Source of the DNA: Balanoglossus misakiensis
Taxonomy: Eukaryota > Animalia > Hemichordata
NCBI GenBank assembly: GCA_040954595.2
Contig: CM082576.2
Span: 15,857,028 to 15,921,027 of the forward strand
Direction: 5' to 3'
Length of the DNA stretch: 64,000 nucleotides
Shown: one piece after another, positions 35,901-62,825 of the stretch
Layout of the letters: the number at the start of each line of letters is the position of its first letter
How positions within the stretch are numbered: the stretch's first letter is position 1
Position numbers and translations under genes: made by a program
The notes under the pieces: generated by a model
What the model saw: the letters and a program-made list of their open reading frames with translations, nothing else
Told to the model about the DNA's origin: nothing
Databases searched by the model: none

Positions 35901-38900
35901 AGACTTAGGTATTCTAATGCATGCAGCGATATACATTTTATGGAAGTCTTCATTCCAAGGCAATATGAAACGCAAATCGCCGAAACTAAGTAACCTATTT
36001 TACGCCAACAGCCAAGGAAGTGTAGAAGTGAACTACAAAGTGGTATTTGAAGAGGAAGCGGAAGTGACGGAGACAGACGTACAAGCTGCACTGTCAGAGG
36101 GGTTGAATAAGACGGACGTCTTTCAAGATTTGACAATCGACGTGGAGGAGATTGTTTTTGTCGCTGTCGGTAGGTATAAAATCGTGTTTTCCATCATTGC
36201 CACAATTGGCGTTGGAATGGAGTGGTTCCGATTTGCATTGGTATGTACATGGATATTGGCTTTGATCAGTGGGGAATCTTGAATTTAGTGGTAGTTCTAT
36301 TATAAATTATTTCCTCATGACATAGCAAAGTGTTTTTTTAAATAATCTACAAGACTGGATACATGTCCTTAATCTAGATGATTTTTAGATACATGCCCTT
36401 AATCTAAATGATTTTTGGATTCAAAATCGGATAGTCGATAAGCATATTTCTATGTAAACATAAATAACATCCTTTCGATATCCTTATACATTTGAAATCG
36501 GCATTCCTATGAAATTCATACTGTATTTTTGCACCATCCACTGAACATAATTATTTGTGTTTGACAGGGAACTGTCCTAAACCGAACAAACCTTTACATG
36601 GAATGTTTTCAAATACAAGTGGTAGAAATGGTGATATTGTAACAGTTCGATGTGATGAAGGATACACGCTTATTGGTAAAAACTCATCAACGTGTAACAA
36701 TGGCACTTGGTTTCCTCATCTGTCAAACATGACCTGTGCACGTAAGTATTGTTTGTTGTTGTTTGATTTGGCGAAAGCCACAAAATTGATCTATATCCTT
36801 ATACATTTGAAATCGTCATTCCCATGAAATTTATGGTGTATCATTCCATTTACTTCACAGGTAACTGCCCCAAACCAAATGAAACCCAACATGGTGCTTT
36901 CGCGCATACAAGTGGGAGACACGGCCATAATGTAACGCTGGAGTGTTATTATGGATATGCCCCAGCACCACACGATTCCTCAACATGCCAACATGGCATG
37001 TGGGATCCACCGCTGTCTCATTTGAAATGCCTTCGTGAGTTATACATATTTTTCCTTCTCGGGGTGTTATTCTCAGAAAAAAGTCTCCAATGAGATATAC
37101 ATCAGTCTAAAGCAGAACAAATGAACATCAAATAGATATAGTCAATGCTGCCTTCAATTTCAAAGTGGAAAACATTCTTATGTGCATCTATTTGAGATAC
37201 AGTTGACATGTGGTTCTTTTACCAATGGTGATGTATATCTACGTTAGCCACTTGTTATACGACGGGAAAAATGGTTTATTAAACGCGAATTTGAATATGA
37301 AGAATAATTATATATAATTCCCCCGTATTTCGAACGAGTGTGCCTGCGTCGCGGACGAGTGATTCCCCGTATAGCGGCCGTATCCCTCCGAGCCGCAGGC
37401 GAGGAGGGATACAGCTATACGGGGAATCACGAGTGAGGAATACGGGGGAATTATATGTTTATCACATACATAGATCCGCTAATTTTGATTTTCAAATAAA
37501 TCTCTTAGTGGTTGCGATAAAATTTGGAACTATTTTGTGCAAAATTGAAGATCGATGTTATGCGGTCTATCTATCAGGTGACTCAGGTCACGACCTGGAC
37601 GATTCTGGTTTTGGCGATGACCCGTCTGTCGTGCGTCAGCTGGATTTCATCGTCCGTTAAGGTTTCACTGGAGCAGGAAACCTCTCTTATGCCTTTTGCT
37701 TTATGACTAGACCGTTTTGCTCTAATCGTCGCATCAAAATTTTTGCGAATACTCAGTTTTGTACCTGTCGCTCGTTCGACAACGCGACGACATTGGCTCA
37801 GCACTGACGACCTCGCGACAGTTTTGGTGCCGGTTGGTGCGATAAAAATGTACACAGGTAAAATTCCCATGTTGTGACGTCACATGTTGGCGAATGCACG
37901 CGAAAAATACAGAAAAATGATGAGATTGGCAAAGAACTCTATTTTCCGTTTAAAATATTATTAAGTGTATATGTATGTCATAATGTTATACAAATAACTA
38001 TTTTTTACCGAAAAGGGCACTGCCGGGACCCAGGAGTACCGCGGAATGGTATGCAGGTTGGCGAATCAGACTACAAAGCAGAATCATGGGTTGAATTCAA
38101 ATGTCGACATGGCTACCAGCTTTACGGTCACTCCTTTGTCAAATGCGTTGACGGCAATTGGAGTTCTCCAATTCCGTTGTGTGTGGGTAAGAAAACATTT
38201 ACTTTGTAAAATTACTAGTGAATTGACCAAAAGTGTGATTCATTACAATGTGTTCATCGCAAATGCTTGGCATAATAATGGCTTTCTTTTTTTCACAAGG
38301 AACCTGTTACATTGAACCTCTTCCACAACACCCAAATGCCAATACTCCTGATGTTGTAGTCAACATACCTCCACAATTCATTGGACATGGTGATAATGGA
38401 GAATTAATGAAACCCAGCGACATGCTTGGACATTGGCCTGGGTCAGACACCGAAAACGTTAACGAATCTTGGTTGGAATCGTATGTGATGCCGCCTGGTG
38501 GTCAGTATCCTAGGCAAGATAACAATCAACCTGGGCGAGATAGCTACCAGTCAGGTGACCACGATCTTGGACAAAACGACCAACAAGCAAGTGAACAAGG
38601 GTTTGGCGATATGCCCTCTGATGGACATTCTCTCCAGGAAGATGGTGAAAGACCAAGACCAGAAGACCACCAAGACATGGGAAAAGAAGATACACTACCA
38701 AGTGAACGAGTAGCGGGATCAGGGAGTACGCCAACTGAAGGCCAACAACCAGACCAGGTTGAGGACCAACCTGGACAAGAGGAACTTAATCCAGATGACC
38801 ACAAAGAAGACCAAGAACAAGGAGAGCAAAACCCAGACGAAAACCCTTATCCAACCCCAGAGTGGCCTGCACATGGAGACACCCCTTTCCCATTGGAAGT

Positions 38901-41900
38901 GCCTCGGTATGGCCCAGGAGAATTTCCCGAGGGGACAAGTCTAGAATTTGAATGTGGACCAGGAACATACCTTTTAGGCATGGCAGCAATCACGTGTCAT
39001 GATGGGCAATGGACTAATGTGTTCCCTGTTTGTAAAAGTGAGTAGTCATTTATTGAGTTTCTGATTTGACTCATTCATATACGTATGCATATATGGTTAC
39101 AGTTTGGCTCATGATCACTGATCATTATTTTTTCTAATTTATGCACAAAAATGCACAAGGGATCGCTTTTGAGATTATGGTCGAAAGGATGTATCCTTCC
39201 CTAAAGAATCAAAATATCTCATCTTACAGACATCATGACAGAATCCCCGGATGAAGCAACGACCGAGGCCGTCGACTTTGAAACGACAGAGGACATGTCA
39301 CGTGATAACGATGATGAACCCAGGGAAGAACCTCTTCCAACATCACCAATTCCTGTGACAAGACCCACGTGCCCTCCCGCAGCAACAAATGAGGGCTCCT
39401 GTACAAGAACCATCACTGGTCCAGCTTTCAGTTCAACCCTTGTCATTGAAGACGGCTTGGACTGGGACGAAGGCATGAGTGACTCCACTTCATGTACATA
39501 CAAGAACGCCTCTTCTGATCTTGGATACAAGGTATCGAACGATTAAACTGAAGCAATCAGTTCTTAAATGGTATTTACTAACAGTTCTAAAGCTAGTAGC
39601 ACAAGTTGGTCCGTGTGAATGACTTAGAAATCAATCACTTTATGTGTTTCGTTTCAGTTGGCCCAGATTTTTAATGCCAGCTCGCTGACTGATGCATTCG
39701 ACTGTATCAAGATCGACTCGTTCAGGTAAAATATTTCAATTTCACTCGCACAAATCACGACATGAACATCAGCACGCACATGAGGAAATAAAAAACAAAC
39801 GCATCGCATCAAACAATATGGCGACTAGTGTGAGGCGACCTCAGTCGGCATGAGTATTCTAATGCATGCAGCGATATACATTTTATATAAGTATTCTTTC
39901 CAAGGCAATATGAAACGCAAATCGCCGAAACTAAGCAACCTATTTTGGTGCCAACAGCCAAGGAAGTGTAGAAGTGAACTACAAAGTGGTATTTGAAGAG
40001 GAAGCGGAAGTGACGGAGACAGACGTACAAGCTGCACTGTCTGAGGGGTTGAATAAGACGGACGTCTTTCAAGATTTGACAATCGACGTGGAGGAGATTG
40101 TTTTTGTCGCTGTCGGTAGGTATTAAACCTTGTTTTCCATCATTGCTTGAATTGAATATTTATTGACCTATTCGCGAAATGTTCATAAACCACCATGCAG
40201 TGTAAAACTTTTTTCCTCCCAAAGGAGTGTTGATGTTATCAAAAACGACTAGAAAAGCATAGTTGTTTTGTTACGTTTTGCAGTGCCGACTACAACGGAA
40301 AAATCCTTACCCACAACACTGAAAAATATGATGGTAACAACAACATACAGAACAGAGGAATCTGATCCAATGGAACTCACGGCATCAGCCGAAACAGAGG
40401 AATTGTTTTCAACAGATGATGATGTAACGCAAAAGATGACGACAGAAGTGACAACAGTTGCCATGCAAACAAGTAGAGATGCGAGGTCTTCGAAGCTTCC
40501 AACAGTCTCTGAAGTGTGGTCCAGTCCGTTAAAACCAACGACACAACAAACTACAGAACAAGAAGAAACAACGGAAGTAACAACTATACGGCAAACTACT
40601 GCCAAACCCACAAAACCGGCAACAACCACATCGAAAACTACTCGAATTACAACCAGATCACTAACAACAGCACTGCCTACCGATAAACAAACAACCAGTG
40701 TGGGTACCACGAAGCAGACCACAGTTTCTCAAACATCAACCGAAGCAACTACACTGAAACAGACATCAACAACATCGCAGCAAGAGATAACCTTAGCAAC
40801 TACCATACCCACTACTATGTTGCCATCCACAGACCCACAATCTTCTACAACACTCACCACCACCATGTCGCAATCGACAAACATACCAACTTCTACAGCA
40901 ACCACCACTGCTATGTTGCGCTCAACAGACACGCCATCATCCGCAAGAAGAACCAGTGAAAACCCAACAACCGAGAACAAAGACACGACGTTCAGACCGA
41001 CATGCGCACCAACCGTCACACGGGGGTCGTGCGAAGGGACCATATCCGGTCTTTCCTACAGGTCCACCTTGGTCATTGAAATTGGCATAGAGTGGCAGGA
41101 CGCGTTGGTGGATCCCACAACTTGCGAATACGGAGAAACCGCAGCACAATTATCGTACATGGCAAGTCTCTTATAAAACCATTAACTTTACATACAGACT
41201 TGGAGTCCAGTTACAGTCTCATAAAGTCACCAAAGTGTGTGCTATAGTATAGTCGTTTGTACACTTATCACTGTGCAATTCTGCTTGGCCAAAAATATTC
41301 CATGGCATAACAAGTCCTTTAGAAATCTACGATAACTCACCACATGTAGTGATGAGACTGTAACGATGTTTTATATATTATTTTCAGCTTGCTGAACTTT
41401 TCAATTCAACTTCTATAGCTGATTATTTCAACTGCATACATGTCGACTCTTTCGCGTAAGTAGATATCGTGTTTCATATTACTTAGTCAACGAGAAACTT
41501 AATAGCGAGCTACCTGACCCTAGATTTGTGAAAATGTCCTAAATGGGCAGTGGTCTATTGGTGCACATTGATTGTGTGTAGCCACCATGAACAGTAATAT
41601 ACAATTTATCTACAATAATATTTGCGGATGTTTTACTACAGGAAAGGCAGTGTTGAGGTGACGTATGATGTTGTGGTAGAGGAGACCGCCGAAGTGGGCG
41701 AGGAAGTCATCGCTGAAGCGTTCAAGGAAGGACACAACAAGACGGACGTGTTTAAAGACCTTACTATAAACACGAACGTTGTCGAGTTTGTACTAGTAGG
41801 TGAGTGTGAAACACCCCCTTTCGGTTTTTTTTTTTTTTTTGTCAATTCAAATCTTGTTTATACTCAACCAGGCTACCATTGCCTTTTCCAAGAACAATGA

Positions 41901-45134: not shown

Positions 45135-47372
45135 ACAGAAAGTTTACATAAATGAAAACCTAACCCCTAATGCTCGTAAACTTCTAAAATTGACGAACCA
45201 GTCAACTACAGGTTCATATGGACGCGAAACTGCCAGGTCTACGTGAAGAAAAGTGAGCAGTCGGGTGTTCTAGCGATCAGGAGTGAACATGACCACGTCA
45301 AAATCGTGTAAGGTACACTTTCTGAGTATTTATTGATCTTAAAATGTGTATTTATTTCTGAGTTTTAAGATCTTACATGGGCTTCACTTTTGATGATTTC
45401 GAGGAGCCTACAAATGAAATCACTTGTGAAATGTATACCGTCAGTAAATTTAATCATATTTTTCCTGAAACTTAGAATGTTTTTTCTATATCACATCTTA
45501 CTATTAGATCCCTGACGAAGAATAACGATAACCTCAATTTATTTTATGAGGAATGTGTAAAAACAAGGTTCAGTTTAATCGCCCTTTCAGAAATTTGTAT
45601 GAAAGCCCGTAAGGGACATTTCGTAAAGCAAAAAAAATTTTTTTATCTCGTGAGCACGAGATACTAAGTCGTGAGCACGAGATACTAAGTCGTGAGGCGC
45701 ACGACTTAGTATCTCGTGCTCACGACTTAGTATCTCGTGCGCACGACTTAGTATCTCGTGCTCACGACTTAGTATCTCGTGCGCACGACTTAGTATCTCG
45801 TGCTCACGAGATAATTTTTTTTTTTGCTTTACGAAATGTCCCTAACGGGCTTTCATAAATTTGGAACGTTGTAGATAAAGATATTTTATTTACTTTATCA
45901 GGATACTCATTTGAAATTAATTGTATGAGCCAAGGTAGAGGGGGAGGAGTTGGTTTGTATCTTCAGGATTCTTTAAATAATATTGTATTACATAATATTG
46001 AAATCAGCAATTGAGTCCCTCTGGGTGGAGCTAAAAATTGGAAAAAAGTTTATTTAGTTGGGGTTATATACAGACCTTCTAACACGAATGAAGACGACTT
46101 TATTTCCAGCTTAGAACATACAGTAAGTTCATTGTCACATAAGTATAATGGTTGTTTTATTGTCGGTGACTTTAATATAGACTTAAGTCATTCATCAACC
46201 CCAAAAAGGAAACATTTGTTAATTTTCGGTGACTTTAATATAGACTTAAGTCAATTCATCAACCCCAAAAAGGAAACATTTGTTATTTTTTTTTCCTTTT
46301 TTTTTAATTTCGAGCAAATAATAAGCTGTCCTACTAGAGTATCAAAAACGTCTTCTACTATTATAGATCACATTTATACAAATGTAACGGGTGAAAATAT
46401 TTCAGCGGGTACAATACTTACAGATATTTCAGATCATTCACCTATATTTGTTATTTTCCCTTCTCCTTCCCATCCTTCCTCCATTTCTATGGTACGTGAT
46501 TATAGGAATTTTCATTTGCAAGCTTTCCTTGATGAGCTTAAATCTGAGGGATGGTAGGAAGTGCTTAACTGTCAGGAAGTTCAATTATCATATTCAAACT
46601 TTGTTAGTACTTTTCTTGCAGTTTGCATCAAACACGCTCTTTTAGTACTTAAAAAATCAGTATGAGAAAAAAAGGATAAACCCTGGATCACAAGTGCAAT
46701 TAAAAAGTCTATAAGGAAAAAACATAAGCTTTTTGGAAATTTGCAAAAATTCTCTCTTAATGAAATAGCTTTAAACTATTATAAGAGATAAAGGTATATC
46801 CTGACAGATGTTTTGAGAAAGGCTAAAAAACAGTACTATACACACTTATTTTCCGAAAATAATGTAAAAATCAAAGAAACATGGGAAGTTATTAACGATT
46901 TAATTGGCAAACATAAAAAATGACACTTCCAGACCATTTGGAAGTGGTTTGTATGGGTACAAAAGAGGTTCATTCAGACATCAATGACACTGTAGAAGAT
47001 CTTAACACTTACTTTGTTAACATAGGTGAAAATTTAGCCAATCAAATTTCTCGTCAAAGCAATGTTACTTTTGATACTTTTTTGCAAAACAGTACATGTA
47101 ATTCCTTTTTTCTTCAGCTAGTAGCTTTAAAGGAAATTGAGAATTTAATTTTTAGCCTGGACATTCGCAAGGCAACTGGTTGGGACAATATTCCGTCTCG
47201 ACTTGTAAAAGCAGCCAATACATATATCTGTATAATTCCACTTTGTCATATATTTAACCTTTCTTTCATCACTGGTCAATTTCCTAACCTCATGAAGGTT
47301 GCACGTGTATTGCATTTATACAAAAAAGGAAATGTTAATGATATTGGTAATTACAGACCAATAAAACGTTGA
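45135..47372 (+). mobile_element. Degenerate CR1/L2-clade LINE (ORF1 C-terminus, APE endonuclease, pre-RT region), lacking RT and 3' end
   Basis: ORF1-like VYINENLTP..FIWTRNCQVYVKK; APE motifs GRGGGVGLY, IYRP, VGDFNIDL, PTRVSKTSSTIIDHIYTN, ISDHSPIF; KPWITSAI; KATGWDNIP; NYRPI; many stops and frameshifts. Confidence 0.9.
45598..45857. mobile_element. IS3EU-like non-autonomous DNA transposon (MITE) inserted in the LINE
   Basis: AATTTG|TATGAAAGCCCG...CGGGCTTTCATA|AATTTG: 6-bp TSD, TAY..RTA termini, long TIRs, internal 21-bp repeats; excision restores LSEIWN. Confidence 0.85.
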
Positions 47373-47532: not shown

Positions 47533-48338
47533 CTAATGCATAACACTGAACATGCGTGTCGGAGCGCACAGATTCCTCATGTAGACATGAGGCCTTCTGC
47601 GGACTTCTCTGACACACTGGAGAGTTTTTTGGATGTCCTCTTCTGGGATGTGGCTTATCATGTTGTTCTCCGGCAGGAAGAAATTCGGCACGTTGCCCCG
47701 CTCCAGGAAATGTGTCAATAGATCAAAGAAACCAATGTATCGATCGCCGTAGTCGGTCCTTTGCCACTGGTCGGTCGGAGTGTGTTCGCACAGCCATAAC
47801 ATAGTCGTCTTCATGTGGTAGGACGAGAGTGTTTGAGGCTCCTGAAAGAGATTTTTGTGGCAAGGATATTTGTGTAACTTACATTTTGGTGATATCATCT
47901 TTTAGTTTAAACTTCATAAATCATCGACCAGTTGCTTACTGCATCATTATGATTTGCAAGGTATTAAGCCCACAATGAAGACCAATGGCGATGACATCAA
48001 ACTTTCACAAGGAACACTTACCTTGAGATGGGTTCGCCAAACTTTCTTCATTACGAGGTAGAACGTCCGCTGTGTTTCTGTGAAGGCGTGGGCTAGAGTC
48101 CTTTCTGCCAGAGAAAATGACAGTCGCCATTGCAGGCATTCGTCACCTTCTTTTCCGGGGTACGACTTTGGGACGACATGGCATCCAGCGGCAGTGATAG
48201 CACGGACGACGTCGCTGGTTGGCCATTTGCGATCGCGTGTTACCCAATGCGAGGCGATGGACGGCCATTCCTTGCAGGCTAGTACCAAAGCACCATCGAC
48301 TGTCTGTTCAAACTCAGCTGTTGTGGCGCTTGGTCCAA
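47533..48338 (-). CDS. Mab-21 core and C-terminal exons (48338-48022, 47841-47533)
   Basis: Third catalytic Asp (TVDGALVL), WRLSFSLAERTL, LSSYHMKTTMLWLCE, VPNFFLPENNMI. Confidence 0.92.
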
Positions 48339-51067
48339 CTGCAAGTGTAAAAAATAAATTGATAGAGATGTCAACGTTTAGTCTCCAACCACTCTGAGCA
48401 GTTCCAAACTATGTGAATTCGAATGGTATTTGATCGCCTCCCCAGTAATATTGACATGACGATACCTTGTTCAGATGTTGCAGTGTAGTGCAAACTTAGT
48501 GTCTGGACAGGACCCTGCTGCACCAGTTCCACTCTGCCACGGAAGCCTCCGTGTTTTTCGTAATTTCTGTCGATCTCTGCTTGGACGGCCGGAATTCGCG
48601 AGCGGACGTATTCTTCTTGGATTTTCAGTAGTTTGGATCTGGACAGATAGAGACGGGCGGGCCCACTTGCTTCGTCCGATTGGATGGCTACGCACAGTTC
48701 TTTGATGAATTCTTTGGAGTAGGCCTGTTTCTTGTCTGGTCGTACTTGCACGCGCACGTAGCCTGGTTGGGGAGTGCGTATCCATTGAAGTGGGGGAACG
48801 TCTCTTGACAGTTGAGATAGTCCTACTTGTTCAAGCTCGCTGATGAGTGATTCTAAACCGTCGGCCCTGTTACAAGAGGCGGTCTGTCCACCACCATCTC
48901 TCGATTTATCGTTGCTCTCTCCATGGAAACCAATCACATCTCTGCCGTCTTCACCAACGGAACTCTCATCAGAGGTCACCGGAGCTTCGGATACCATGGA
49001 TACGGGTATCATCAAATCCATCTCGTCATTCAGATATCGTTCAGTTCGTGCGCTATGATCCGTGATGGCAAAACCCTCGCTGGTACTACCAGTCCACACA
49101 TACTCGTCCACATTGGCCAGGTTGTTGAAGCAAGGCTTCAGGACATACTGAAAGATGCCTGCCAACCTACCACTTAACTTGTTCGGCTCTCTTGGGGCAA
49201 AATTGCTACGCTCGTACATAGACAGAGCAAGGCCGTGCATGCTGACAGAATTCCCTACGTGAGATATTAATTCTCTCGACACGGGATCCATTCTCATCTG
49301 AGGGTTGCTTACCAACCGATTTGTAGCAAGTTGGTCGTTGATTGCATACAGTAAGTCTGCCTCGTTTGCACACCCCGCAGTGATACGCTTCTCCACTCCA
49401 ACCATTTGCTCCATCTGACCAAAAATCTTAGCTTGGAGTTGTACGGCTGGTATCCCGATAAAATAATACACAAGTTAGTATACAAAACCGTCAGATCCTA
49501 ACACCTTCAAAGTATCTTTTGTAGACAACATGCTGTATTTTGATTTTGTCAAACGTATCCGACTAATGTATCAGAAACAATAATGGGAGAAGTATCAATT
49601 ATCATTTCTACTGGTGCTTCCGAACGGCAAATAACCAGAATGACAGACAAACATGACATGCTTTGTCTGACTGTAAACTACCTACCAGCGTGACCTGATC
49701 GAAAAATCTGTGTGTCTCCATGAGTTTCGTCAGTGAAATCCCGTCCCCAGGGTGATCTTTGTCGCTCGAATTGCTCTGTACCCTTCACTCCTGTCGTAAA
49801 CTTGAAACTTTCTACAAATGTAAAGGATCATTTGCCTTAGCATATTCGAAAAGAAACAACACCAAAAATTGTTGACTGATGGACCTTTCCATTATAAGAA
49901 AGCAACTACTAAAGTCTTCGTTGTGCGTAAAGCTATGGTTTAACCTTTCGTGCTTCCCTCTTTTAGGCCCTCATGAAAACAGCCAATGAAAAAGTGTGCG
50001 CATGGTGGACCATAACAGCAATGCTAAATTTTGCACGACGCTCTGTTGTAAGGAAGTCGTACAAACTGGTGTGTCATAAACCGATAACAAAGAAATGAGT
50101 TCGGCGCCTTAGAAATCGTTTCTAGAAGAAAGGGCACACAGGATAAAATTACCAATGGGTTCCAAGAGGCCCGCCCCTTCGTCGGACGAAATATTCTGCG
50201 GAAGCTCGATGTGTGAAGGCTCATCAACGATAGAAACTTGTATACATTTACCAGTAACAGCAACCAGGGGATATACATCTGTGGGAGGAAAAAATGTTAC
50301 TCGGTGAAATATTTCAATTGTCATGTTTAAAAGCCATACAGAACTAAATTTAAGTCATCAAAACAAAGGTAATATAATACCTTCTGGAATGTTGCGAAAT
50401 CCCATCCCTTTAGACACACCATTATAGTAGTAATGGAGGGTCTTGTCTTGGAGTAGAACAATACCAACACGGTCGCCTTCCTTGATTTTATCCAGATCAA
50501 GGTCATAATGACCACCGTTGACTTTGAAATCTTTCAAGAACTCAGAATTCCTACACAATAAAGGAAATTATCTGTAACTATCCTAAAGTATTCCCATATT
50601 CAAAATATTTGGTTGCGTTACAACTACTTTCGAATGTATCCATTGTTGTAGTCTATGTTCTGTCTAACAAGATGTTGGCGTGTTCTGTCAAGGGTAACGT
50701 GAACCTTGGCCATTATCATTGAAAGGTATCTACTGATTATTCTGTCCTTTGACTCAGGACTTGCAATGAATCCTGTACCCATTTTAAAAATTGCGTCAAG
50801 GACACTGTGGTCCCATTTGAGGATTATTCGGAAACAGTGACACACCAGAATAAAAATCACAGGTGACATTGCAAGCAGATATGATCTTACCATATGGAAA
50901 TATGGAATGTAAAAAAATTAACAAGGAACATGCCCAATAAACTGTCATGTGTCGTGGCAGTCTTACAAGTGGTGCTAGAAAAAAATTGACCAAAAATTGT
51001 CTGTACAAACACATATGAGAAGCAACTTCTTTCAGTCAGCCCTGGAACAGACAGACACACACAGACA

Positions 51068-51139
<72 letters not shown>

Positions 51140-54100
51140 TACATACATACATACATACATACATACATACATACATACATACATACATACATACATACAT
51201 ACATACATACATACATACATACATACATACATACATACATACATACATACATACATACATACATACATACATACATACATACATACATACATACATACAT
51301 ACATACATACATACATACATACATACATACATACATACATACATACATACATACATACATACACACATCATCATCATCATATGTGGATTTTGGCAAGAAA
51401 CTGCATAAGTCACATAAAACATAATAGAGCTAACGGGGCTTTTCTGCCCACTGTGGTAACCAACACTTCCATTTGTATGGCACATTGAAACTATGAGTGA
51501 ACGGACACCGATGCTCTACAAACTTCTCTGCCATGAGCGGGATTTTCACCTTGATGTCCATGAAATCAACAGTCCTCTGAGGCTGTAGCCATGACAACGG
51601 AAACTCATCATTCTCATCGGCAAACATCGTGATGACTTCCCTCCTCTTTGCTTGTCGTTCTGCTTCAGTCCCATAGCTGTACTTTGGTTTCTTTTATTTT
51701 GATAGACACTCACATGTTGATATTTAAATTTTGTTGATTTTATTATATCTATGCAATACATCAAACGCAATAGTATTTCCAGTAGGACACTGATGTTGAA
51801 AATTTGAAATTTAAACAAAACTAAAACAACTTTAAAAAGAATTAATATACATAAAAGTGCTTCCAAGTTAATACAGAGAGTGTCAGAATATTCATACCAA
51901 ACTTGATTGGTTGATACAGATTTTTGTGTGAATATTTCTAGGAAAATACAGCTTTTCCGCTCGAATTTGAAAAAAAAGAAAACTGTGTTACATAGAGTAG
52001 AAATGGAACTATAATTTTCAATGTTTACATTTTTTTGAAAATTAAAATTGTCACTTTGGTACACTATTTATATGGCTTATGCATTCGAAGGTGAAAGACC
52101 AGAGTCCATCTTCTCTCTAACGTCAACAGTTGCGGATTTTGCTTCTTTGACATCAGCCACTGGGACAGTTGTTTGTAAAGATTGTTTGTTAATACAGAGA
52201 GTCTTATGGACACTTATTTACTGCGCTAATACATTTACACAGTCGTTTCCATAGTCAACGACCAGAACCTTACAAAGTGGTTCATCATCCGTTACACAGA
52301 TACCATGGGGTTGATTGAGTCCATCATCATCACTGTCAACACGACAGACAAATTTCCCCCCAGATTCATATTTGACAATTCTGTTATTGCCGCTATCTGA
52401 GACATACACATAGCCGTGTTTATCCACAGCCACTCCGCGTGGGGAACTCAGCTGACCATCTCCACGTCCTTCGGATCCGAATGTATACAGGAAGTGACCA
52501 TCACCATCGAACACTTGAATTCGATGGTTTGTGGTATCTGATACATAGACATTGCCTTTGTCGTCCATGCAGACAAACCATGGGCAGATAAACTCACCCT
52601 CCTCACTTCCCTCTCTCCCAAATGATTTGATATGATTTCCATACTGGTCGTAGATGTGAATACAGTGTGCACTGTTATCCACAACACAAACCCTCCCATT
52701 GACAGGACTTATGCCAATACCGATCGGCCATTTAATCTTTCCCTTCCCAAAACACCTGATCAGTTTGCCATTCTCGTCACAGACAATTACCTGCTTATTT
52801 CCTTCATCTGTTGTGAAAACATTTCCATCTACTGACACAGCTGCATCGTTTGGTTTAAACGCGTTACTCAAATTTCTAAATCGGAATATTTTCTGCTGTT
52901 TTCCACCCACACTGAAAGATTGCAATCTACGATTACCAAAGTCAGAAACTAACGCATCTCCTGTTTTTGTGAGGGTTACCCCATATGGATACTTCAGCTG
53001 CCCAGCTCCTGAACCCTTCTCCCCAAATTTACACACCAACCCCTTCTTATGAATAACTTTAAATCTAACCGGTGAACCCCGTACTACTTTCTTACGTACC
53101 GACACTGACAGTTCACGTTCGCCTTCCGTGTTTGCACGAGTTTTTAAACTCAGAGTCCCGTCGTTATTATCGCTGACTTCCACTTTTTCTCCTGATGTCA
53201 AGGCAGCCTCAACTTCTCCAATATTTGTCTTAACCGGTGACGTCATTGTAACGCAGATTTCTTCGTCTATTCTTGTGAAGTCTGGAGCATCAAGTATTCC
53301 ATAAGGAACTGTAATCTCTATCGCTCCTACCTTCTTCTCCGTACAGAAATCATCACACGGTTGGAACTTCAGGTAGTCGCTCTCCATCGGTTCGGTTTCT
53401 GTCTCCAATTTCAGCAATTCTGTCATCTGACTGCTTATCCCTTTCTTTGCCGTCATCAACTGCGTAGCGTTGCCATGGTGAAGCAGTTTCTCGGCGTATT
53501 CTCTCGCGTGCGACAGATCATTATGGCAAACTTCCATTTCTTTCAGCTGCGCGTTTAAATTCAATTTTCGCCTGTCGTATTCGTCTTTCAGTTCTTTCAG
53601 AAGTTTGTCGCCGTTTTCTTGTATCAGACGAGTGAGTTCTTCGATTGTTTTACGGATGTGTTCTCTCAGTTTGTCGTCATCTCTCCTGAAGCTCTCGTCT
53701 AAGGATGTCGATACTTGGGTAACAGCTATCGTGCTCTCACTGACTTGAGTTTCTTTCGTTTTCACTTTGTCAATGGTCGTTAGCAAATCTTCGGCGTAGG
53801 CTTCGGCTGCCTGTTTCACACAACGGTACTGGTGATCGGGTTTGCAATGATCCAACGCCGTGCACTTCAGACAGATCGCCTTGCCGCACGTATCGCAGTA
53901 GAATTCGATCTTGTAGTCTGGATGTTTGCTGCAGTAGATCGGTGGCTGAACGGAGGCGGGGTCGACCGACTTGGCGCTGTTGTATTCGACCACTGAAACG
54001 AGCCGGTGCAGTTTCGTCAACGGGACTTTTACGTGTCCCCTGGAACAAGCATCACACATTTCGAGAGAACACTCGACACAGTGCATGGTCCGAACGCCCT

Positions 54101-54704
54101 GCTCGCACAGTTCACACTTCATCGTTGACGTCGAAGTGTCTCGTTTATTGAGCAGTTCAACCAAATCGTTCAGAAAACCGCTGGTGTCGAAGCCGGACAC
54201 GCCATTACCAGGAAGCTCGTGGGACCGCCGACATATTGGACAGTTTACAGCACCATGAGTTTTCTCTGCCAGCTTACCCAGACACGGCGCGCAGAAAGTG
54301 TGTAGACACGGTAGAATTTTCGCATTCTTGTACCTCTCTAAACAGACAGTACAGAGGAGGAAATTCTCGTCGATTTCCGTTGCAACCCCGGAATCCTTGG
54401 CAGCCATAATTGCGCTGTTCGTTGATCGTCTGTTTACCGGACTCGTGACCTGGCTAGTTATCATCACATGACCAAATTCTACGAATTCATTGTGTGACAA
54501 TGGATTTCTACGAAGTGGGCAATGGTGCATTGTGGGGCTTAGACATTAAGACATTTCTGATTCGTGAGCCGTTGTCCTCAGGTGAACTTTTAAATGACCC
54601 GACTTGACCTTATGATTTCCATAACTGTGCATGTACGTTGTATCTCATCTTTCCATTCCTATAAGGCCTAAATGTCGAAATGTCACGTGTAGGACACACA
54701 CACA

Positions 54705-54769
<65 letters not shown>

Positions 54770-57700
54770 ACCTGCCACCGGTAATTAAAAATTTAATAGC
54801 TGGTGGTCTCTGTAACAGCCAGCCTATTAAAGTTATGTAAACATGTCTTAGTTCGGGGTAACAACTCCTTGTAAATAGTAACTTTAAAAACAACTGGTTT
54901 AGGAGAAGATTTGCAAACCAAAAACAAAGAAACTTTCAAATAAAACTCGCTAAATATTGAATATTTCTGATCTGATATCAGAATTGAATAAAAGTTGCAC
55001 ATATACATGACTTGTATGTGTTATGAAATTATATCCTAAATTTCAAAGCAATCAGAGAAAACACAAATTTCAAAGCAATCGAACAAGCAGTTTCACAGAA
55101 AATATTTGTTCAAAAGTGGCAAAAACACAAATATGCAAATATCACCAAAATTGTACAATATCTTACTTCAATCACTACAAGGAACATGCTGCCAAAGAGC
55201 AATGCAATATGACATGCGGTTTCAGAGAAAACAATTTTTGACAAAAATTGCCAAAGTTTCCTCGATGACACATGTATGCAAATATCACATTTTTTACAAC
55301 ATATTACTTAGGTTACCCCTACGAACATGCCTACCAAATTGCAAGGCAATCTGGCATGCGCGTTTAAAGAAGAAGAAAAGTTGACCAAAAGTGGCAAATA
55401 TTGCTCAAAATTATAAATATGCAAATTTTGCAGCAATATGGTTACTCAGACAACCATTAGGAAGCTTCATACTAAATTTCAAAGAAGTAAGCCCATCACT
55501 TTCAGAAATGAAGACTCTTTACCAATGACATGGAAAAATACAAAAAAATGCATAACAAATAGGTAATCGATATTATTAGCTCAAAACATACACGACTGTA
55601 TGAGGTTGACATAAGGTACATGCATACCAATTTTCAAATCAATATGACCAGTGGTTGTCGAGTTTTTGAGTTTTGACCAATTTCACATTTTCCCAGCTAA
55701 TGTGCATATTTTTGGCAATGACAACTTCATTTGAACAAACTCCCATCTACAGCTCTACCTGCATCTACACACCAAATATCGAGGTCATACGCGCAGCGGT
55801 TTTCAAGTTTTTGATGTGGACGGACATACAGACATACATCCATACATCCATCCATACATACATACATACATACATACATACATACATACATACATACATA
55901 CATACATACATACATACATACATACATACATACATACAGACGCAACCGATCCCATAAGGTCCCATGGTACATACCAATGGGACCAAACAAGTGTTCTCTA
56001 TATTTATCATACGAATACGTTGTGGTGTTAACGTACCTAAGAAACCAAAATCCAGCTCCTTCCCCATCACCTTGACCGTGGTATGAAACGTCATCAGGAA
56101 ATTCTTTGTACATGGTGACACCTGAAGAGAGTATTAAGGAATACTAAGTTTATAGAAAGTCCTTTTAATAAAAAAAAGGCACTGAGAGATATACAGGATC
56201 CACATTCGTAGAAAATTAGAACCATTCAGAGACACAGAGTAAACTCGTAGGGGACAAGAATTAAGAATCTATAAGTACGTAAATTGGTTGACTGGTTACA
56301 TACCAAATTCTAGAGAATCTGCCACCCTTTCAGTATCCATTTTGTCAATATGTATTTCGAAAAGTTGATTTGTTGCGAGAGGTTTGTCTGTGATGAATAC
56401 TGCTTTGTTGTCAGCCCACAGGTATTCCCAATCTTGTCTGTACGCTACACGCCCGTCATTCTTGACCCTGGCACGTTTGCCTGCTGGAATAAACCGCATC
56501 CCTTGGTACCCCGTGCCTTCCTGTTAACAAACAACACCATTTGCAACGTTAAAGCGACAAAGTCTCTCAGTCTCTCGCTGCCCCTTTTCCATTAATTATA
56601 TTTGATACAAGACACCATTTATGTTACTCTACATGTGGATATATAGTGACTGAACGTTCGACCACACACAACTACCATCACGTTTGTAGGATATGAGAGT
56701 TAAAATCACGCCAAAAATGAATAAATGGTAGAGACTGATTATTCATTTTTCGCGAGTTTTAACTCCCATGTCTGCAAGTGGGATGGAAGTTGTGTATGGT
56801 TGAACGTTGATTCACTATATATCCACATGTAGAATAACATAAACGGTGTCTTGTATCAAACATAATTAATGGAAACGGCAGCGAGAGAGAGAGAGACTTT
56901 GCCCATTTAACACCAAGAATTAGTTTAAATTGACTGATGGACAGTAAGTATTTATTGATGCTAGAGTTAAATAATAACACATGTTAGCGAGGGCAATATC
57001 ATGCGGCGAGGGCATCATCAATATTATGGTCAGAGATCACCAGCCCGAGGGCAGACCAAAGATCATGATATTGCCCGAGCATGACATGTGTTATTAATTT
57101 TATTATACCGAACATTTGACCATACACAGCATAGAGGGTTACGTCCATTTCCAACGATGCAGGTTGCAGTGAACTAAAATATCTCGCTGTACAGTGTACC
57201 GACTTTGGTGTATTTACTGTCCGTTTGCGGTAAAATATCGTCAAGTTGAACAGAATACAGAGTGAGGTGTAATAATTTCTTTTAGTGACGTTTGGGAAGA
57301 CACTTACAGGCTTAGGTGTGACTTCCTCGACATTGCTTGACGGTTTCCCGTCTACTGAATTTTCAATCTTCGGAGGCCAGTGACGTTTAGGTTTCTCAGC
57401 GTCCGGGCTGACCTTAGGAAGTCCCATTAATTCAAGATTCGCATTTGCCACGGCCTGCACCTTTTAGTGAGTGAGTGAGTGAGAGAGAGAGACAGGAGAT
57501 GAGAGGGGGGATAGACAGACAGGGGAGGGTGCATCATTACGAAAAGCACTGCTGAAAATGTAGTACTGACAAAAGTGGCATGGACAGCTTATTAATTACG
57601 TCAGGTATTGTCTCGAGAAAGCACATAACGACTTGTGTCATAATCTTTAAAGATGTCATTACCAATGTCATAAATGAACTACCTTATCCTTCAGGTTTTG

Positions 57701-58007
57701 GCAGTGTTGCTGACAAATATTCAACAAAAACTTCACGAGCCCAGCATCACCCGCAGCAGATGCGAATACGAGACTTGCGTCTGTGCAGTTCATAAAGACG
57801 TTATTCAAAGCTCCTAAGCCTTCCCATCGTTCCTTGTCCATATACGCACCGTCTTCTCCGTTACCATAAAAATCCAGGGCTCGGTTCATCAGAGTGTCTG
57901 GAGAGAATTGTAAATAAACTGTGTTACATCTCGAATCGCACCAAATTTCGCAATTTATCTATTTATCAATTTATCTGTCTGTCTGTTTGCCTATCTGTCT
58001 GTCTGTA

Positions 58008-58038
<31 letters not shown>

Positions 58039-61000
58039 ATGTATGTATGTATGTATGTATGTATGTATGTATGTATGTATGTATGTATGTATGTATGTAT
58101 GTATGTATGTATGTATGTATGTATGTATGTATGTATGTATGTATGTATGTATGTATGTATGTATGTATGTATGTATGTATATGTATGTATGTATGTACGT
58201 ATCTATTGGCTAAGCCTATAGATAGCACGTTGTCACTTACATCATCCGACGTGTATAATATTTACTAAAACCAGTAATATTAGCAGCATGCCTGCGTTAT
58301 ATTAAAATGTCATCACACAGAAATACTAACCTAAACCACCATCTGTGTCCGATATTCGTTCAGCAATAGCGGCCCTGTCTTTTCTATTGGTGTCGCAAAG
58401 TGCCTTAGAAACAGCCACAATGACATCTTTGGCCTCATCTGGTTTCATTTCTCCGAGACTAGAAACTAGACTATCGACAAACGCGCAGGTTTCTGCCACG
58501 CTTTGATCACAACCGGCTGCAAAGGTGTCAGATGTAAGGAGGATATATGAAGAGAATTACAGCAGAGACGATGAGTGCATAAGCTTGTAAGGACTATACA
58601 ATATTAATCTAAAATCGTGTTTCTGACAAACAGAGATCCCCAGTGAAACGAGACTGGAAGATCTCTCGTATGATTCGCTAATGGAGATTGCCTCAATCGA
58701 TGACGTATTTCCGACCCTAATGGGTTAACTGTCTTTACAACCTTTATGTGGTCGGGATGATTTTTTGTTATAACTCACTACTCCCAGATCGTTCGTCCGA
58801 AGCTTTGTTTTCTTTTGACGTCTGGTCATCATCTTTGCTGTAGAGATCGAATTTGTTCAGCAGACGACGAACAGCATCATGGTCCGGTCCTTCGCATCGC
58901 TCCAACACGTCAAACAAGACAGGCACTGCATGCGTCATTACCTTATTCATGTGACAATAGAGAGATTTCAATGCCAAATTATGAACCAGAATGAAAGTTA
59001 TCAAGTTATTGTGTCACGATTGAGTTTTAACGATCATAGATCTTGTTTATGATTAAGTAAGAAGTCATTCACTTGTATGGTTTTAGTCCAGTATTGACAT
59101 AGGTACTTGACCCAGAGTAAACAAGATTGTGTAATTGATACATGTCAGAAGGAGATAGAGATATCACGCGCTAAGTTCATGTTTAAGAAATATTAAGATG
59201 ACGTGTTCCTTTTATGACTTAATACTTGACTAACGTATTAATAAGGTGTGGTGAAATTTGAGATCACACGTTTATAACGGGAGATCCGTGATGGGAGTCA
59301 ACGAGCATGGATCGAGTCGTGTAATTCTTACGTGTGACCAGTAATAAACCAGAACTTTGTGTTACTCGGAAAACTTGTTGCAAGTCTCTGTCTACGAAAG
59401 GTTTACGACCTGCCGGGTACCTCTCTCGGACTTTATGAATATGTTGGGTGGAGAAGGAGATGGAGAGAATTTACGCCGTCACCCTTCGGACGTGGCTGAT
59501 TCCCCACAGAAGCCCCGATGAGGTGAGCGTCGGAAGGACGGCGGGCGGGCGTAATAATAACACATGGTGTTAGAATCCGGGTAGGCAGAGATGTTGCAAC
59601 TGATTCCTGAACCGAGAAAGAAGAGAAAAAGCTGGCGAAACTGACGATTCAATGGTCTGCTTCAGAAGGAAACGAGAACAGAAAAAAGGTTGGTGCTGAC
59701 TGTTGACTGCATGGAATGCGTGGACGGGTTTTCAACGATGGATCTGTTGTTTGATCAGAGGGGCGTCGTATCCAGAAGCATGTAGTTGAAGCAGTTCGGG
59801 CGACGAAGAAAAGAGGTCTCGTGGAATGAAGAAGGGAAGACTCTTGAATCGTCTGCTATCGCAAAAGAACTGTGATAGAATGACATTGAACTGAATAATC
59901 AGCCTTTTTAATATATAGTTTGGGAGATTTGATCATTGAAATATTGCGTGATCGTATTTTCTTTGTCTACTCTGATGACGTGAGTTAGTAGACGTGAGTT
60001 GACTGACCGTTATTTAACCGCTTTTGATTTGATATTGTTTTCCGCCAAGTTTTTGCCTTGTTTTCGACATTGTAATTGTGTATTCTTTTGTTGAAGTGAT
60101 GCCGTGAAGTGTAGTGAAGTTTACTAGTAATAGGTTTTTGAGGAGTTGTTGAAGTTTTTGTGATGACCGCAAGAGAGACGGTCTGGTGATGAAGTCGTGA
60201 TGTTTTAATGACCGCAAGGGAGACGGTCTGGCGTATGAAAATGGCCCTTTGAGTTGGCATGTGAGTTCATACGAGGGACAAGAGAGAAGACCCAGAGTGT
60301 AGTTGAAGTTAAGCGTGATTTAATTGTAGTCTTACGCATCCTTTCACATAAGAATTCGTTTCCATTGTCGTGGTTATTTTTGAACGTGACAGTATGATGG
60401 AGTGTATTATGTTTGTACACAAGAACTATCAGACTTGATTTTTTTTACGCGGTTATTGACTGTTGAATTTTGCACTGGAAAAGAGACACTCTTTGACGAG
60501 AAGTCAGAACAGTGAAGTCGTTTTGAATTTTGACATTGAAAAGTTTCATGCGATTTTCTTTAATTTGTTTGAACAGGCTGTGATATTTTAAAGGTGATTA
60601 TTGAGTTTGATTTTGACGTAGTGTATTTAAAACCGATAGCGCAGACCTGGTTTTCGTTTTCATTCTTTCTTTGATCGAACGTGGAAGTTCGATTATTGGA
60701 AAAGTGGGAAGTGTCACGATTGAGTTTTAACGATCATAGATCTTGTTTATGATTAAGTAAGAAGTCATTCACTTGTATGGTTTTAGTCCAGTATTGACAT
60801 AGGTACTTGACCCAGAGTAAACAAGATTGTGTAATTGATACATGTCAGAAGGAGATAGAGATATCACGCGCTAAGTTCATGTTTAAGAAATATTAAGATG
60901 ACGTGTTCCTTTTATGACTTAATACTTGACTAATGAATTAATAAGGTGTGGTGAAATTTGAGATCACACGTTTATAACGAGAGATCCGTGATGGGAGTCA

Positions 61001-62825
61001 ACGAGCATGGATCGAGTCGTGTAATTCTTACGTGTGACCAGTAATAAACCAGAACTTTGTGTTACTCGGAAAACTTGTTGCAAGTCTCTGTCTACGAAAG
61101 GTTTACGACCTGCCGGGTACCTCTCTCGGACTTTATGAATATGTTGGGTGGAGAAGGAGATGGAGAGAATTTACGCCGTCACCCTTCGGACGTGGCTGAT
61201 TCCCCACAGAAGCCCCGATGAGGTGAGCGTCGGAAGGACGGCGGGCGGGCGTAATAATAACAATTGTGCTGTGTCTATCGCAAATTGTCTTGCATATCAG
61301 AGGAAAAGACAACATTATTATCTTATGAAGAACACCCCCATGTCTGCCGCCTTATCATAAATACAACAAAAGTGTAGAAAAACGCGCAATGAATGTTCTT
61401 GATTCGACTCACATTTTCTCTGTTTTGTGGGTGAAGCGACAGGTTCTCCAGGGCTTCGGCAAGTTCTCCTATGGAAAAAGACTGCGGTCCTTCTACTAAG
61501 CACTTCTGAAGCCATATAACAAGTTCCTTTATAACACCTGCCATGACAAAAACAAGTGACGCGGTGTTTAATGTAACCAATCTTAACAGCGGGATGTTAT
61601 GTACTGTGGTGTGATATGGTGTGGTATGGAGCGGTGTGATGTGATGTGATTTCAGTCATGTGATATGATGGAAGGAAATGAGGTGCAATTTTAGATATAC
61701 AACACAACAAAGTTTCTCAAGCTTTTATCGACAGTTAGTCGTATTTCAAAATAGCGTTAAAACATTTTTTCGTGTTTTAAAAACTTGAACAAAATGATGT
61801 TAAATCTTGCACACATACTGCAGGAATAATTACCGTTTTCGTCTTTAATGAGGTCCACTTCTTTGGTAGGGTCGATCACATAGCTCAACGTCAGACAGGC
61901 CGCCAAACGACGTCCTGGGTCGGCTGACCCCTTGTAAAAATGTAGAAGACGTTTCGTTTCCGGGTTGTCAAAATACACACGGTTAGTTTTCGATTTGACA
62001 AGATTGTGCAATGTAAACAAACACGTGCAAACCAAGTTCCATCTCCTCTGTCAAAAGGAAAATAGGATTATCATAGCTTTAAAGTAAACTTCAGAAACCT
62101 GTTGAAGAAACTGAAATGATTTCCTATTTGTCCGGCTAATAGGGTGTCAAGTGACTGTTTGGGAACCAGACCCCATCATGCAATGCAAGTACCTTCATTT
62201 CCTGTCCCGCCGACACCCATTTCGTCACTTCCGCAATGACAGTTGATACGTCCTCTCGTTTACAGTCAGCATTCTGGGAACCACGCAGCACATCTGAAAT
62301 GAAAGGATGAAGTCCAATGTGCATAAAATACTGGTTTTGGTCTACAAGAATGATTTTCGCTATTTGACCTTCTGCGGCAAGTTGAGGCACCCCTTACACT
62401 GTTCAGGGTTCAGTTTGTATTGCTAGATAAAATATAATCTACTGCCGCGCCGTCGACTGTGACGAGGTAAGCATGACAGAAAAACAGAGACCAAAGGTCA
62501 AACAAGGCAACGGGTTACACGTACCAAAACAAACCGAAAGCTGAATAAAAATGTGAAATTACTCCGATATATTGTAGGCAAATTGAAAAATTACTAACAC
62601 ACAGAAAGATATGAAGTAGTTGAAGTGAGTGAAATCATTTTTTGATCCTTGATGACAGTTATGTTTGAGCGGAATGGTTTTGATGGAATGCGGAAGTACA
62701 TGTAACCGTCTGTTCGGAAAATCGTGCTTTGCCGACGAATGAGATATGAATCTGGTTAGTGTCCTCACAAAAACACCATGGAGTTAGCATGGGGTTGGCT
62801 TACCTGCTATCTGTACAGCAGCCAT
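47533..62825 (-). CDS. cGAS-like receptor (Mab-21/cGLR nucleotidyltransferase) with N-terminal ARM-like and Neuralized (NHR) domains, 16 exons, ~1169 aa
   Basis: Exons 62825-62804, 62293-62193, 62047-61834, 61537-61413, 58941-58779, 58516-58331, 57897-57683, 57460-57308, 56520-56304, 56121-56037, 50550-50381, 50278-50153, 49811-49686, 49446-48466, 48338-48022, 47841-47533; 3510 nt in frame. Motifs TGSTSEG..DEMDLM, TVDGALVL, WPSIASHWVTRDRKWP, GCHVVPK, WRLSFSLAE, SSYHMKTTMLW, PNFFLPENNMI. Confidence 0.8.
48466..49446 (-). CDS. cGLR NTase-core exon
   Basis: YVWTGSTSEGF...LNDEMDLMIPV (GS plus E-x-D catalytic motif); PGYVRVQ; QGPVQTL. Confidence 0.9.
50153..56520 (-). CDS. Neuralized homology repeat (NHR) encoded by four exons split by a 5.5 kb intron
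   Basis: MRF..GKRARVKNDGRVAYR..NKAVFITDKPLATNQLFEIHIDK..SLEFGVT..FP..GFWFL | DLDKIKEGDRVGIV..TLHYYYNGVSKG..NIP | DVYPLVAVTGKCIQVSI. Confidence 0.8.
51055..51380. repeat. (CA)n + (CATA)n microsatellite
   Basis: Directly visible. Confidence 0.98.
51430..51685 (-). pseudogene. Orphan C-terminal coding fragment, possibly LicD/FKRP-family
   Basis: EFPLSWLQPQRTVDFMDIKVKIPLMAEKFVEHRCPFTHSFNVPYKWKCWLP resembles LicD-family C-termini (from memory, not searched); no upstream exons found. Confidence 0.35.
52218..54407 (-). CDS. Intronless TRIM-NHL E3 ubiquitin ligase (RING, 2 B-boxes, coiled coil, filamin-like, NHL repeats; TRIM2/3/56/71-like), 729 aa, nested in a cGLR intron
   Basis: MAAKDSG..LLCTVCLERYKNAKILPCLHTFCAPCL..CPICR; CELC..CVEC..CDAC..H; CSKH..YCDTC..ICLKC..DH; VRGSPVRF; NHL repeats FGEKGSGAGQLKYPYGV, FGSEGRGDGQLSSPRGVAVD. 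Confidence 0.95.
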   Translation of the reverse strand: MAAKDSGVATEIDENFLLCTVCLERYKNAKILPCLHTFCAPCLGKLAEKTHGAVNCPICRRSHELPGNGVSGFDTSGFLNDLVELLNKRDTSTSTMKCELCEQGVRTMHCVECSLEMCDACSRGHVKVPLTKLHRLVSVVEYNSAKSVDPASVQPPIYCSKHPDYKIEFYCDTCGKAICLKCTALDHCKPDHQYRCVKQAAEAYAEDLLTTIDKVKTKETQVSESTIAVTQVSTSLDESFRRDDDKLREHIRKTIEELTRLIQENGDKLLKELKDEYDRRKLNLNAQLKEMEVCHNDLSHAREYAEKLLHHGNATQLMTAKKGISSQMTELLKLETETEPMESDYLKFQPCDDFCTEKKVGAIEITVPYGILDAPDFTRIDEEICVTMTSPVKTNIGEVEAALTSGEKVEVSDNNDGTLSLKTRANTEGERELSVSVRKKVVRGSPVRFKVIHKKGLVCKFGEKGSGAGQLKYPYGVTLTKTGDALVSDFGNRRLQSFSVGGKQQKIFRFRNLSNAFKPNDAAVSVDGNVFTTDEGNKQVIVCDENGKLIRCFGKGKIKWPIGIGISPVNGRVCVVDNSAHCIHIYDQYGNHIKSFGREGSEEGEFICPWFVCMDDKGNVYVSDTTNHRIQVFDGDGHFLYTFGSEGRGDGQLSSPRGVAVDKHGYVYVSDSGNNRIVKYESGGKFVCRVDSDDDGLNQPHGICVTDDEPLCKVLVVDYGNDCVNVLAQ
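54694..54767. repeat. (CA)n microsatellite
   Basis: Directly visible. Confidence 0.97.
55000..55990. mobile_element. Helentron/DINE-like non-autonomous element with (CATA)n and terminal hairpin
   Basis: Internal aaatttcaaagcaatc repeats, (CATA)n at 55824-55937, then hairpin ggtcccat..atgggacc plus A-rich end. Confidence 0.5.
56553..56906. mobile_element. Third copy of the TTAA palindromic MITE
   Basis: ttaa|agcgacaaagtctctc...gagagagactttgccca..ttaa. Confidence 0.7.
56969..57100. mobile_element. Hairpin-type element fragment (Crypton-like)
   Basis: taataacacatg..gggcaatatcatg / catgatattgccc..catgtgttatta. Confidence 0.45.
57975..58197. repeat. (GTCT)n/(GTAT)n microsatellite
   Basis: Directly visible. 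Confidence 0.97.
59012..61262 (+). mobile_element. Young non-autonomous LTR retrotransposon (TRIM/LARD-like) in a cGLR intron
   Basis: 551-bp LTRs at 59012-59562 and 60712-61262 (TG..CA, ~3 mismatches seen); ATTG TSD; PBS-like TGGTGTTAGAA after the 5' LTR; PPT GGAAAAGTGGGAAG; ~1.15 kb internal region with no gag/pol ORF. Confidence 0.92.

Follow-up and report, generated by a model that had tools for sequence, protein, structure and literature searches.

Animal cGAS-like receptors (cGLRs) such as Sp-cGLR1 (PDB ID: 8gjy), Cv-cGLR1 (8gjw) and Tc-cGLR (7lt2) share with cGAS a nucleotidyltransferase (NTase) fold made of Mab-21 and Mab-21_C regions, with a GS loop and an acidic catalytic triad. The preprint by Li et al. 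2023 (10.1101/2023.02.22.529553, PMC9980059) reports that cGLRs sensing double-stranded DNA or RNA (dsDNA, dsRNA) have an isoelectric point (pI) above 8.5 and that acidic cGLRs probably respond to unknown ligands other than nucleic acid. A separate group of invertebrate proteins, the ARM-TIR(-SAM) proteins, is given the name ARM-TIR in PMC4346834 and PMC9334734, the latter stating that their function is unknown, and 10.64898/2026.04.20.719644 reports animal TIRs that make cyclic ADP-ribose. We found that a 64,000-nucleotide stretch of the genome of the hemichordate Balanoglossus misakiensis (GCA_040954595.2, contig CM082576.2, positions 15,857,028 to 15,921,027; hereafter the window) contains a gene that draws on both. 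Its coding span (47533..62825, minus strand) comprises 16 exons and specifies a predicted protein of 1169 residues in the order ARM half A, acidic linker, ARM half B, linker, NHR domain, helical connector and Mab-21/cGLR-like NTase. We are highly confident of the structural facts, namely one reading frame, an intact catalytic triad and an ARM-TIR module whose halves are permuted.

The joined exons total 3510 nucleotides, or 1169 codons and one stop, and all 15 introns are GT-AG, splicing being predicted throughout from sequence and homology. Residues 6-1169 align with P0001, a Ptychodera flava RefSeq protein (XP_070557767.1), at 59.3% identity (59% end to end), and each of exons 2-16 scores above 2000 of 2000 shuffles against that protein. 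Moreover, 13 of the 15 junctions are gap-free, including all of those from 9/10 to 15/16; the gapped ones, 5/6 and 8/9, both fall in low-complexity linkers. The original prediction, which had joined 16 exons into one 1169-codon frame, is borne out by these data, and the NHR-to-NTase junctions that it had picked out for confirmation (12/13 and 13/14; 50153>49811>49446) align without gaps. At junction 10/11 the alignment pairs FWFLRNSEF with FWFLRNSDF, also with no gap. The score of exon 1 (62825-62804, seven codons) was reached by 267 of 2000 shuffles, making the start codon only plausible; together with exon 2 (62293-62193) this weakly supported exon provides residues 1-41, the N-terminal helices.

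The ARM module is encoded by exons 3-7. Half A begins in exon 3 (62047-61834, residues 42-112), continues through exon 4 (61537-61413, residues 113-154) and ends in exon 5 (58941-58779, residues 155-208), which also encodes the acidic, predicted-disordered A-to-B linker and ends in phase 1. Half B, which corresponds to the N-terminal half of the ARM module in ARM-TIR proteins, starts in exon 6 (58516-58331, residues 209-270) and ends with exon 7 (57897-57683, residues 271-342), after which exon 8 (57460-57308, residues 343-393) forms a variable linker. Using a profile made from eight family N-termini, we found 137 non-family proteins among the best 150 of 365 cluster representatives at E ≤0.001, with named examples in lungfish, amphioxus, a crinoid, molluscs, a brachiopod and P. 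flava. A TIR_2 domain is present in 73 of the 137 (40 of 66 at E 1e-3 and 33 of 71 at E 1e-6, counted by eye), NHR is found in nine, CARD, kinase and SH2 domains occur as single cases, and the family NTase profile hit none of them. HHalign gave a probability of 99.5 for the match of the ARM module to the ARM-TIR side.

The two halves stand in opposite order on the two sides of this match. Among the 137 non-family proteins, 111 have B then A, 26 have A alone and none has A then B; among 24 family rows, 18 have A then B, three have B alone, three have neither and none has B then A. When a reverse profile was built on 98 proteins outside the family, window residues 39-170 fell at its positions 151-287 and residues 213-341 at positions 16-152, an exchange of order that indicates circular permutation. 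Generic self-similarity of ARM repeats was rejected as its cause, since half B was never found downstream of half A in the 137 proteins although ARM repeats continue there. On this profile evidence, the module is a circularly permuted form of the one found in invertebrate ARM-TIR proteins. The helical exons had been called ARM-like beforehand, a reading that the profile match supports; neither the permutation nor the ARM-TIR origin had been part of it. Of the domain checks then proposed, the Pfam searches for Mab-21 and Neuralized gave the expected domains. ARM received no Pfam call on the window exons, a single weak ARMC5 match being confined to the 15 homologs described below, and was found by the profile. 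A PDB sequence search with the ARM profile gave nothing under E 0.2, and Foldseek gave nothing under E 0.001. No TIR domain was found in the 15 homologs or in the window open reading frames (ORFs) scanned. In its unpermuted form, the ARM module also accompanies a CARD (P0032) and Mind-bomb SH3 repeats with a kinase (P0067), and in P0090 the B and A matches are separated by an SH2 domain.

Modelled alone, the ARM module gave a predicted local distance difference test score (pLDDT) of 86.6 and a predicted template modelling score (pTM) of 0.83, with only the linker disordered; in the family this A-to-B linker is acidic and 21-56 residues long. With order-dependent aligners, about 110 residues of one half fit ARM/HEAT solenoids at ~3 Å, and the few rows spanning both halves gave 14-22 Å, except for a closed toroid at 7.5 Å over 267 residues. 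One-half-only fits and poor two-half fits are what a B-on-A stack within one chain would give, and in the predicted model the two halves form one rigid unit linked through a disordered acidic tether, an arrangement that would most likely restore the ancestral B-on-A stack. A prediction of two ARM copies together, with the alignment not used, returned 0.00 and 0.01 (mark 0.32), scores that weigh neither for nor against pairing.

The position of the break was compared with the introns of 80 ARM-TIR loci obtained in a metagenome contig scan, introns being predicted from sequence in these loci as well. In 21 of the 80, one alignment crosses the B-A boundary without an intron, and most others fall short of the boundary. 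The spliced locus L063, in which the predicted exons run through 221 codons with no stop and keep the B-then-A order, has a phase-0 intron between KENVSSK and NVYYVLKSS. From there on, window exon 3 aligns without gaps, so that its phase-0 start coincides with the start of half A in ARM-TIR genes, and exon 7 ends, likewise in phase 0, within 0-2 codons of this ancestral B-A boundary. L063 also shares the exon 3/4 (phase 1) and 4/5 (phase 0) introns, so that the introns on both sides of exon 4 match in position and phase; its counterpart of the exon 6/7 intron has the same phase and lies one codon away. The 3/4 and 4/5 introns recur in L065 and L068 and the 4/5 intron in L080, and L068 carries, within that B-A loop, an intron of phase 0 placed eight profile positions earlier. 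A chance figure of 1.5e-9 for these matches was rejected, as it assumed four exact matches including 6/7; the same formula applied to three gives about 3.5e-7 by hand arithmetic. The phases of the window exons, 0-A-1-B-0, are those expected if a 1-B-0-A-1 block was duplicated in tandem and the outer halves were then lost, an exon-block route, and ARM proteins with two B-A blocks do exist (P0032 and P0039). A break at an intron shared with a canonical ARM-TIR gene is thus a predicted feature pointing to exon-block reshuffling. At L019:726-3554, two intronless ARM-TIR-type modules lie in tandem on one contig. Relative to ARM-TIR(-SAM) proteins, the window protein keeps the two-half ARM module and three intron positions with their phases, whereas its halves are reversed, the last ARM repeat of half A is lost, TIR and SAM are absent and the output domain is a Mab-21 NTase.

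That output domain follows the connector of exon 13 (49811-49686, residues 593-634). Exon 14 (49446-48466, residues 635-961) encodes two extra helices, the spine helix, G754-S755, E776, D778 and an insertion of ~100 residues in the NTase lobe; exon 15 (48338-48022, residues 962-1067) supplies the third catalytic Asp, D976; and exon 16 (47841-47533, residues 1068-1169 and the stop) supplies the Mab-21_C helical lobe. Pfam places Mab-21 (PF03281) in exon 15 and Mab-21_C (PF20266) in exon 16, at 48.9 and 61.5 bits against a cut-off of 24.1. The catalytic codons lie on the minus strand at 49090-49085 (G and S), 49024-49022 (E776), 49018-49016 (D778) and 48297-48295 (D976), and the cGLR motif h[QT]GS, X8-20, [DE]h[DE]h with a third h[DE]h appears here as WTGS, X20, EMDL and VDG. 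GS and E-x-D are kept in 16 of 16 family rows and the third Asp, which aligns with an Asp of Sp-cGLR1, in all 15 rows that reach the D976 position. In the full-length AlphaFold model of P0001 (pLDDT 66.3, pTM 0.46), residues of about 700-1165 match Sp-cGLR1 with Z 21.6 and a root-mean-square deviation (rmsd) of 4.0 over 316 aligned residues, followed by mouse cGAS (Z 21.0), MB21D2 (20.6), and MAB21L1 and Cv-cGLR1 (20.4). The NTase and helical lobes of the predicted structure therefore have the cGAS fold (Z 19-22 across the cGLRs compared), and the expectation of a Mab-21 NTase retaining GS, E-M-D and the third Asp holds. Human MB21D2 resembles the window protein as its top PDB match, in its intact triad and in its lack of a zinc thumb, but the two are only 17-18% identical in structural alignments and MB21D2 has neither ARM nor NHR. 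Compared with cGLRs, the protein carries ~690 extra N-terminal residues (permuted ARM, NHR and connector), a wider spacing in the triad and a non-basic enzyme domain.

Between the two modules lies the NHR domain (residues about 401-569), its first half in exons 9-10 (56520-56304 and 56121-56037) and its second in exons 11-12 (50550-50381 and 50278-50153), split by the 5486-nt intron 10. Pfam finds Neuralized (PF07177) in exons 9 and 11, with exon 9 alone scoring 33.6 bits against 23.3 and P0001 scoring 63.1, and residues of about 397-575 of the P0001 model match the NHR of NEURL4 (2e63, Z 16.7) and Neuralized (2yue, Z 14.6), so a full NHR domain, as first proposed, is confirmed by Pfam and by fold. 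PMC6506465 reports that NHR domains bind protein substrates and that the NHR is the substrate receptor in NEURL1. NHR also accompanies the unpermuted ARM module in nine of the 137 proteins, as in P0064 and P0132, but there it comes before ARM, whereas here a single NHR follows it, with no RING or SOCS box in the protein.

The gene belongs to a small family. A search with exon 14 among longer proteins listed 15 matches, all from acorn worms (Ptychodera, Saccoglossus and Glandiceps) or crinoids (Anneissia and Antedon); these counts are among the matches listed, so absence from other phyla is weak evidence. The NHR-connector region retrieved 14 of the 15 again and one further P. flava protein. 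Thirteen of the 15 have Neuralized and Mab-21 in one record, and 10, from four species, have A-then-B ARM, NHR and Mab-21 together. Separate trees of ARM, NHR and NTase (rows with >60 residues in the domain, midpoint root only) share four groups, P0014 with P0015, the crinoids, P0004 with P0006, and P0012 with P0013, which indicates that the fusion is old and was inherited whole. Not all records are complete: in Glandiceps, P0027 (with ARM alone) and P0005 (NHR and NTase) have consecutive accessions, P0022 is an ARM-NHR record without NTase, and P0017 begins inside the NHR. Like P0022, the P. flava proteins P0056, P0174 and P0179 are ARM-NHR records ending before the NTase core, either split models or enzyme-less decoys. 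In P0013 (Antedon), fibronectin type III domains lie between NHR and NTase, a further added binding domain. We found no second copy of the gene in the window and no relatives in viral contigs (0 of 8 pattern matches).

Five rows with SPRY/SPRY_NHR_like cGLR fusions appear in Table S2 of Li et al. 2023 (the 3,020-enzyme list). Four are homologs P0004, P0010, P0011 and P0021 and the fifth is a similar Anneissia protein; the ARM part is unannotated in these rows. The screen table of PMC9980059 includes none of the five accessions and no protein from Saccoglossus or Anneissia, in keeping with the earlier statement that this architecture is not among characterised cGLRs. The question whether it is already common and annotated has a divided answer: NHR and Mab-21 are annotated together automatically in RefSeq-derived records, but the combination is rare, with five Table S2 rows. 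The main text of the preprint has no occurrence of "neuralized" or "armadillo", and the available text of PMC10732462 and PMC10855445 mentions neither of these nor SPRY; further literature on the subject includes PMC8195603 and PMC7075850. The NHR and Mab-21 fusion is therefore catalogued, but undiscussed and unscreened, in Li et al. 2023. Literature searches that covered few subscription papers gave no description of this family or of the ARM permutation, and neither the permuted ARM-TIR module nor the intron-guided way in which it arose appears to have been described so far.

What activates the enzyme is a question on which the charge of the NTase bears. Its pI is 6.39 (55 Lys and Arg against 60 Asp and Glu) and that of the homologs is 5.5-6.7 in 14 of 15, below the >8.5 reported for nucleic-acid-sensing cGLRs; our values were computed with an algorithm other than that of Li et al. 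2023. The cGAS spine helix contacts DNA. The segment aligned to its start has no Lys or Arg here and at most two in 15 of 16 rows, this uncharged first half is preceded by the two extra helices, and no Cys/His insertion is found after the WRLSFS strand, which we take to be the zinc-thumb site of vertebrate cGAS. A non-basic enzyme domain and an uncharged spine-helix start favour a protein ligand, and we tentatively prefer, at slightly less than even confidence, a cGLR-like enzyme that would be gated by such a ligand through its ARM and NHR domains, an activation that the original prediction had put forward as an option. The predicted protein would then be a cytosolic immune receptor with ARM/NHR and NTase in one chain, in which the former may bind a protein or peptide, either pathogen-derived or a guarded host protein; binding would switch on cyclic dinucleotide synthesis by the NTase, and the product would act on a STING receiver. 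STING genes are listed for S. kowalevskii (one) and Anneissia japonica (three) in PMC9980059. Under this reading the ARM module would derive from a gene of the ARM-TIR type through rearrangement of exon blocks, in which a B-A block was duplicated in tandem and the outer halves were lost, and would have been coupled to a new nucleotide-signal enzyme. A fuller scenario, possible but somewhat doubtful as a whole, is that this module was permuted at an ancestral intron and, together with NHR, was rewired from TIR to cyclic-dinucleotide output in an acorn worm/crinoid ancestor, giving a protein-activated enzyme; ligand binding could then convert the contact of B on A within one chain into head-to-tail assembly through the permuted ends, clustering the enzyme.

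Several observations weigh against this preferred reading. The D778-to-D976 spacing is 195 residues against the 50-90 published in PMC9980059, outside the strict cGLR definition, though it is 150-343 across the homologs and 168-182 in those on Li et al.'s own list. Human MB21D2, for which we know of no demonstrated product, is both the top PDB profile match (E 2.3e-30) and the top Foldseek match, and the pTM of the full-length model leaves domain packing unclear. Conservation of the NHR among paralogs is high, with 48 of 169 columns at 85% or more, which is not the pattern of a pathogen-binding surface that diversifies fast, so the domain may bind a host protein. Leaving out the acidic insert 791-832 raises the enzyme pI to 7.5, the C-terminal 337 residues (833-1169) alone have a pI of 8.6, and helix 1049-1066, whose counterpart in cGAS is presumably the basic C-lobe helix that contacts DNA, is basic in all 15 rows that hold it; taken together, these values are compatible with nucleic-acid binding. 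The pI of the C-terminal part and the basic residues kept across the family in helices 904-933 and 1049-1066 speak for a cGLR activated by dsRNA or dsDNA in which ARM and NHR only place the enzyme, scaffold partners or set turnover. Nine of 15 active enzymes in the screen of Li et al. (PMC9980059) respond to dsDNA or dsRNA, but the low overall pI, the uncharged spine-helix half behind two extra helices and the missing zinc-thumb insertion make this somewhat unlikely here.

An enzyme that makes no second messenger, with the NHR recruiting a protein for the NTase to nucleotidylate or with a non-immune role like that of Mab21 or MB21D2, would suit the substrate-receptor function of the NHR in NEURL1 (PMC6506465), the presence of MB21D2 and MAB21L1 among the top matches and the enlarged NTase lobe. 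We consider it rather improbable, since cyclases match the two lobes of the caged cGLR fold with a Z that is as high or higher and since a multi-copy, lineage-restricted family whose ARM module is common to TIR and CARD proteins points to immunity. The ARM module might instead, by analogy with SARM1, bind a small molecule and release autoinhibition. SARM1, like the window protein, has an ARM regulatory module before a nucleotide-consuming enzyme, and its ARM is gated by NMN and NAD+. The donor ARM-TIR family, often with SAM, has a SARM1-like domain set and keeps an S-x-x-C-x-x-E motif, whose Glu we take to be the TIR catalytic residue, in 25 of 30 aligned members, and SARM1 is among the fold matches (Z 9.4, rmsd 4.8, 118 aligned). 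However, SARM1 scores level with unrelated solenoids there, it is absent from the best 60 of 193 PDB sequence matches of the ARM-TIR profile, and only 6 of the 137 columns of half B are conserved, so that metabolite gating seems improbable. The enzyme differs from that of SARM1, and the likeness of the two ARM modules appears to be generic. Finally, the exons could be divided among two or more transcripts, with ARM or ARM-NHR on one side and NHR-NTase on the other, or transcription could end early at a TRIM gene in intron 10, as the split or short RefSeq models (P0027 with P0005, P0022 and P0017) and a TRIM-NHL ORF on the same strand, with two polyA-like hexamers behind it, would allow. This is very improbable given whole records in 10 of 15 homologs from four species, intact frames and splice sites, an NHR fold that needs the exons on either side of intron 10 and gap-free junctions from 10/11 to 15/16.

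The ORF in question (52218..54407, minus strand) is intronless and encodes 729 residues with RING, B-box, filamin and NHL regions; it lies outside the 1169-residue frame and had not been reported in the original prediction. The hexamers that follow it are at 51744 and 51698. A TRIM-cGLR fusion was rejected, as the ORF has its own stop and the homologs lack TRIM; an E3 ligase gene sits inside a putative immune gene on the same strand. Intron 4 contains a 99% identical direct repeat (59011-59310 and 60711-61010, 1700 nt apart), which by eye reaches a length of about 540 nt and may mark the two ends of an inserted element. Immediately beyond the stop of the gene, broken plus-strand ORFs at 46015-47372 resemble what we take to be the endonuclease and linker of a long interspersed nuclear element. 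Further away, 27746-41176 (plus strand) holds repeated proline/acidic exons, all of which close with a cysteine motif of sushi type, then mucin-like threonine-rich and SEA-like exons, with three near-identical copies at 30263, 34259 and 38239, and 2249-12690 (minus strand) holds another gene with mucin-like repeats and a YWTD-like propeller exon.

The locus is a clear-cut natural example of an ARM solenoid that has been circularly permuted, with the break at a conserved intron. Moreover, with candidate ligand-binding domains in the same chain as the enzyme, the question of what acidic cGLRs respond to becomes directly testable. As the same ARM module precedes TIR, CARD and kinase domains in other invertebrate proteins, a ligand found here may explain the ARM-TIR proteins as well.

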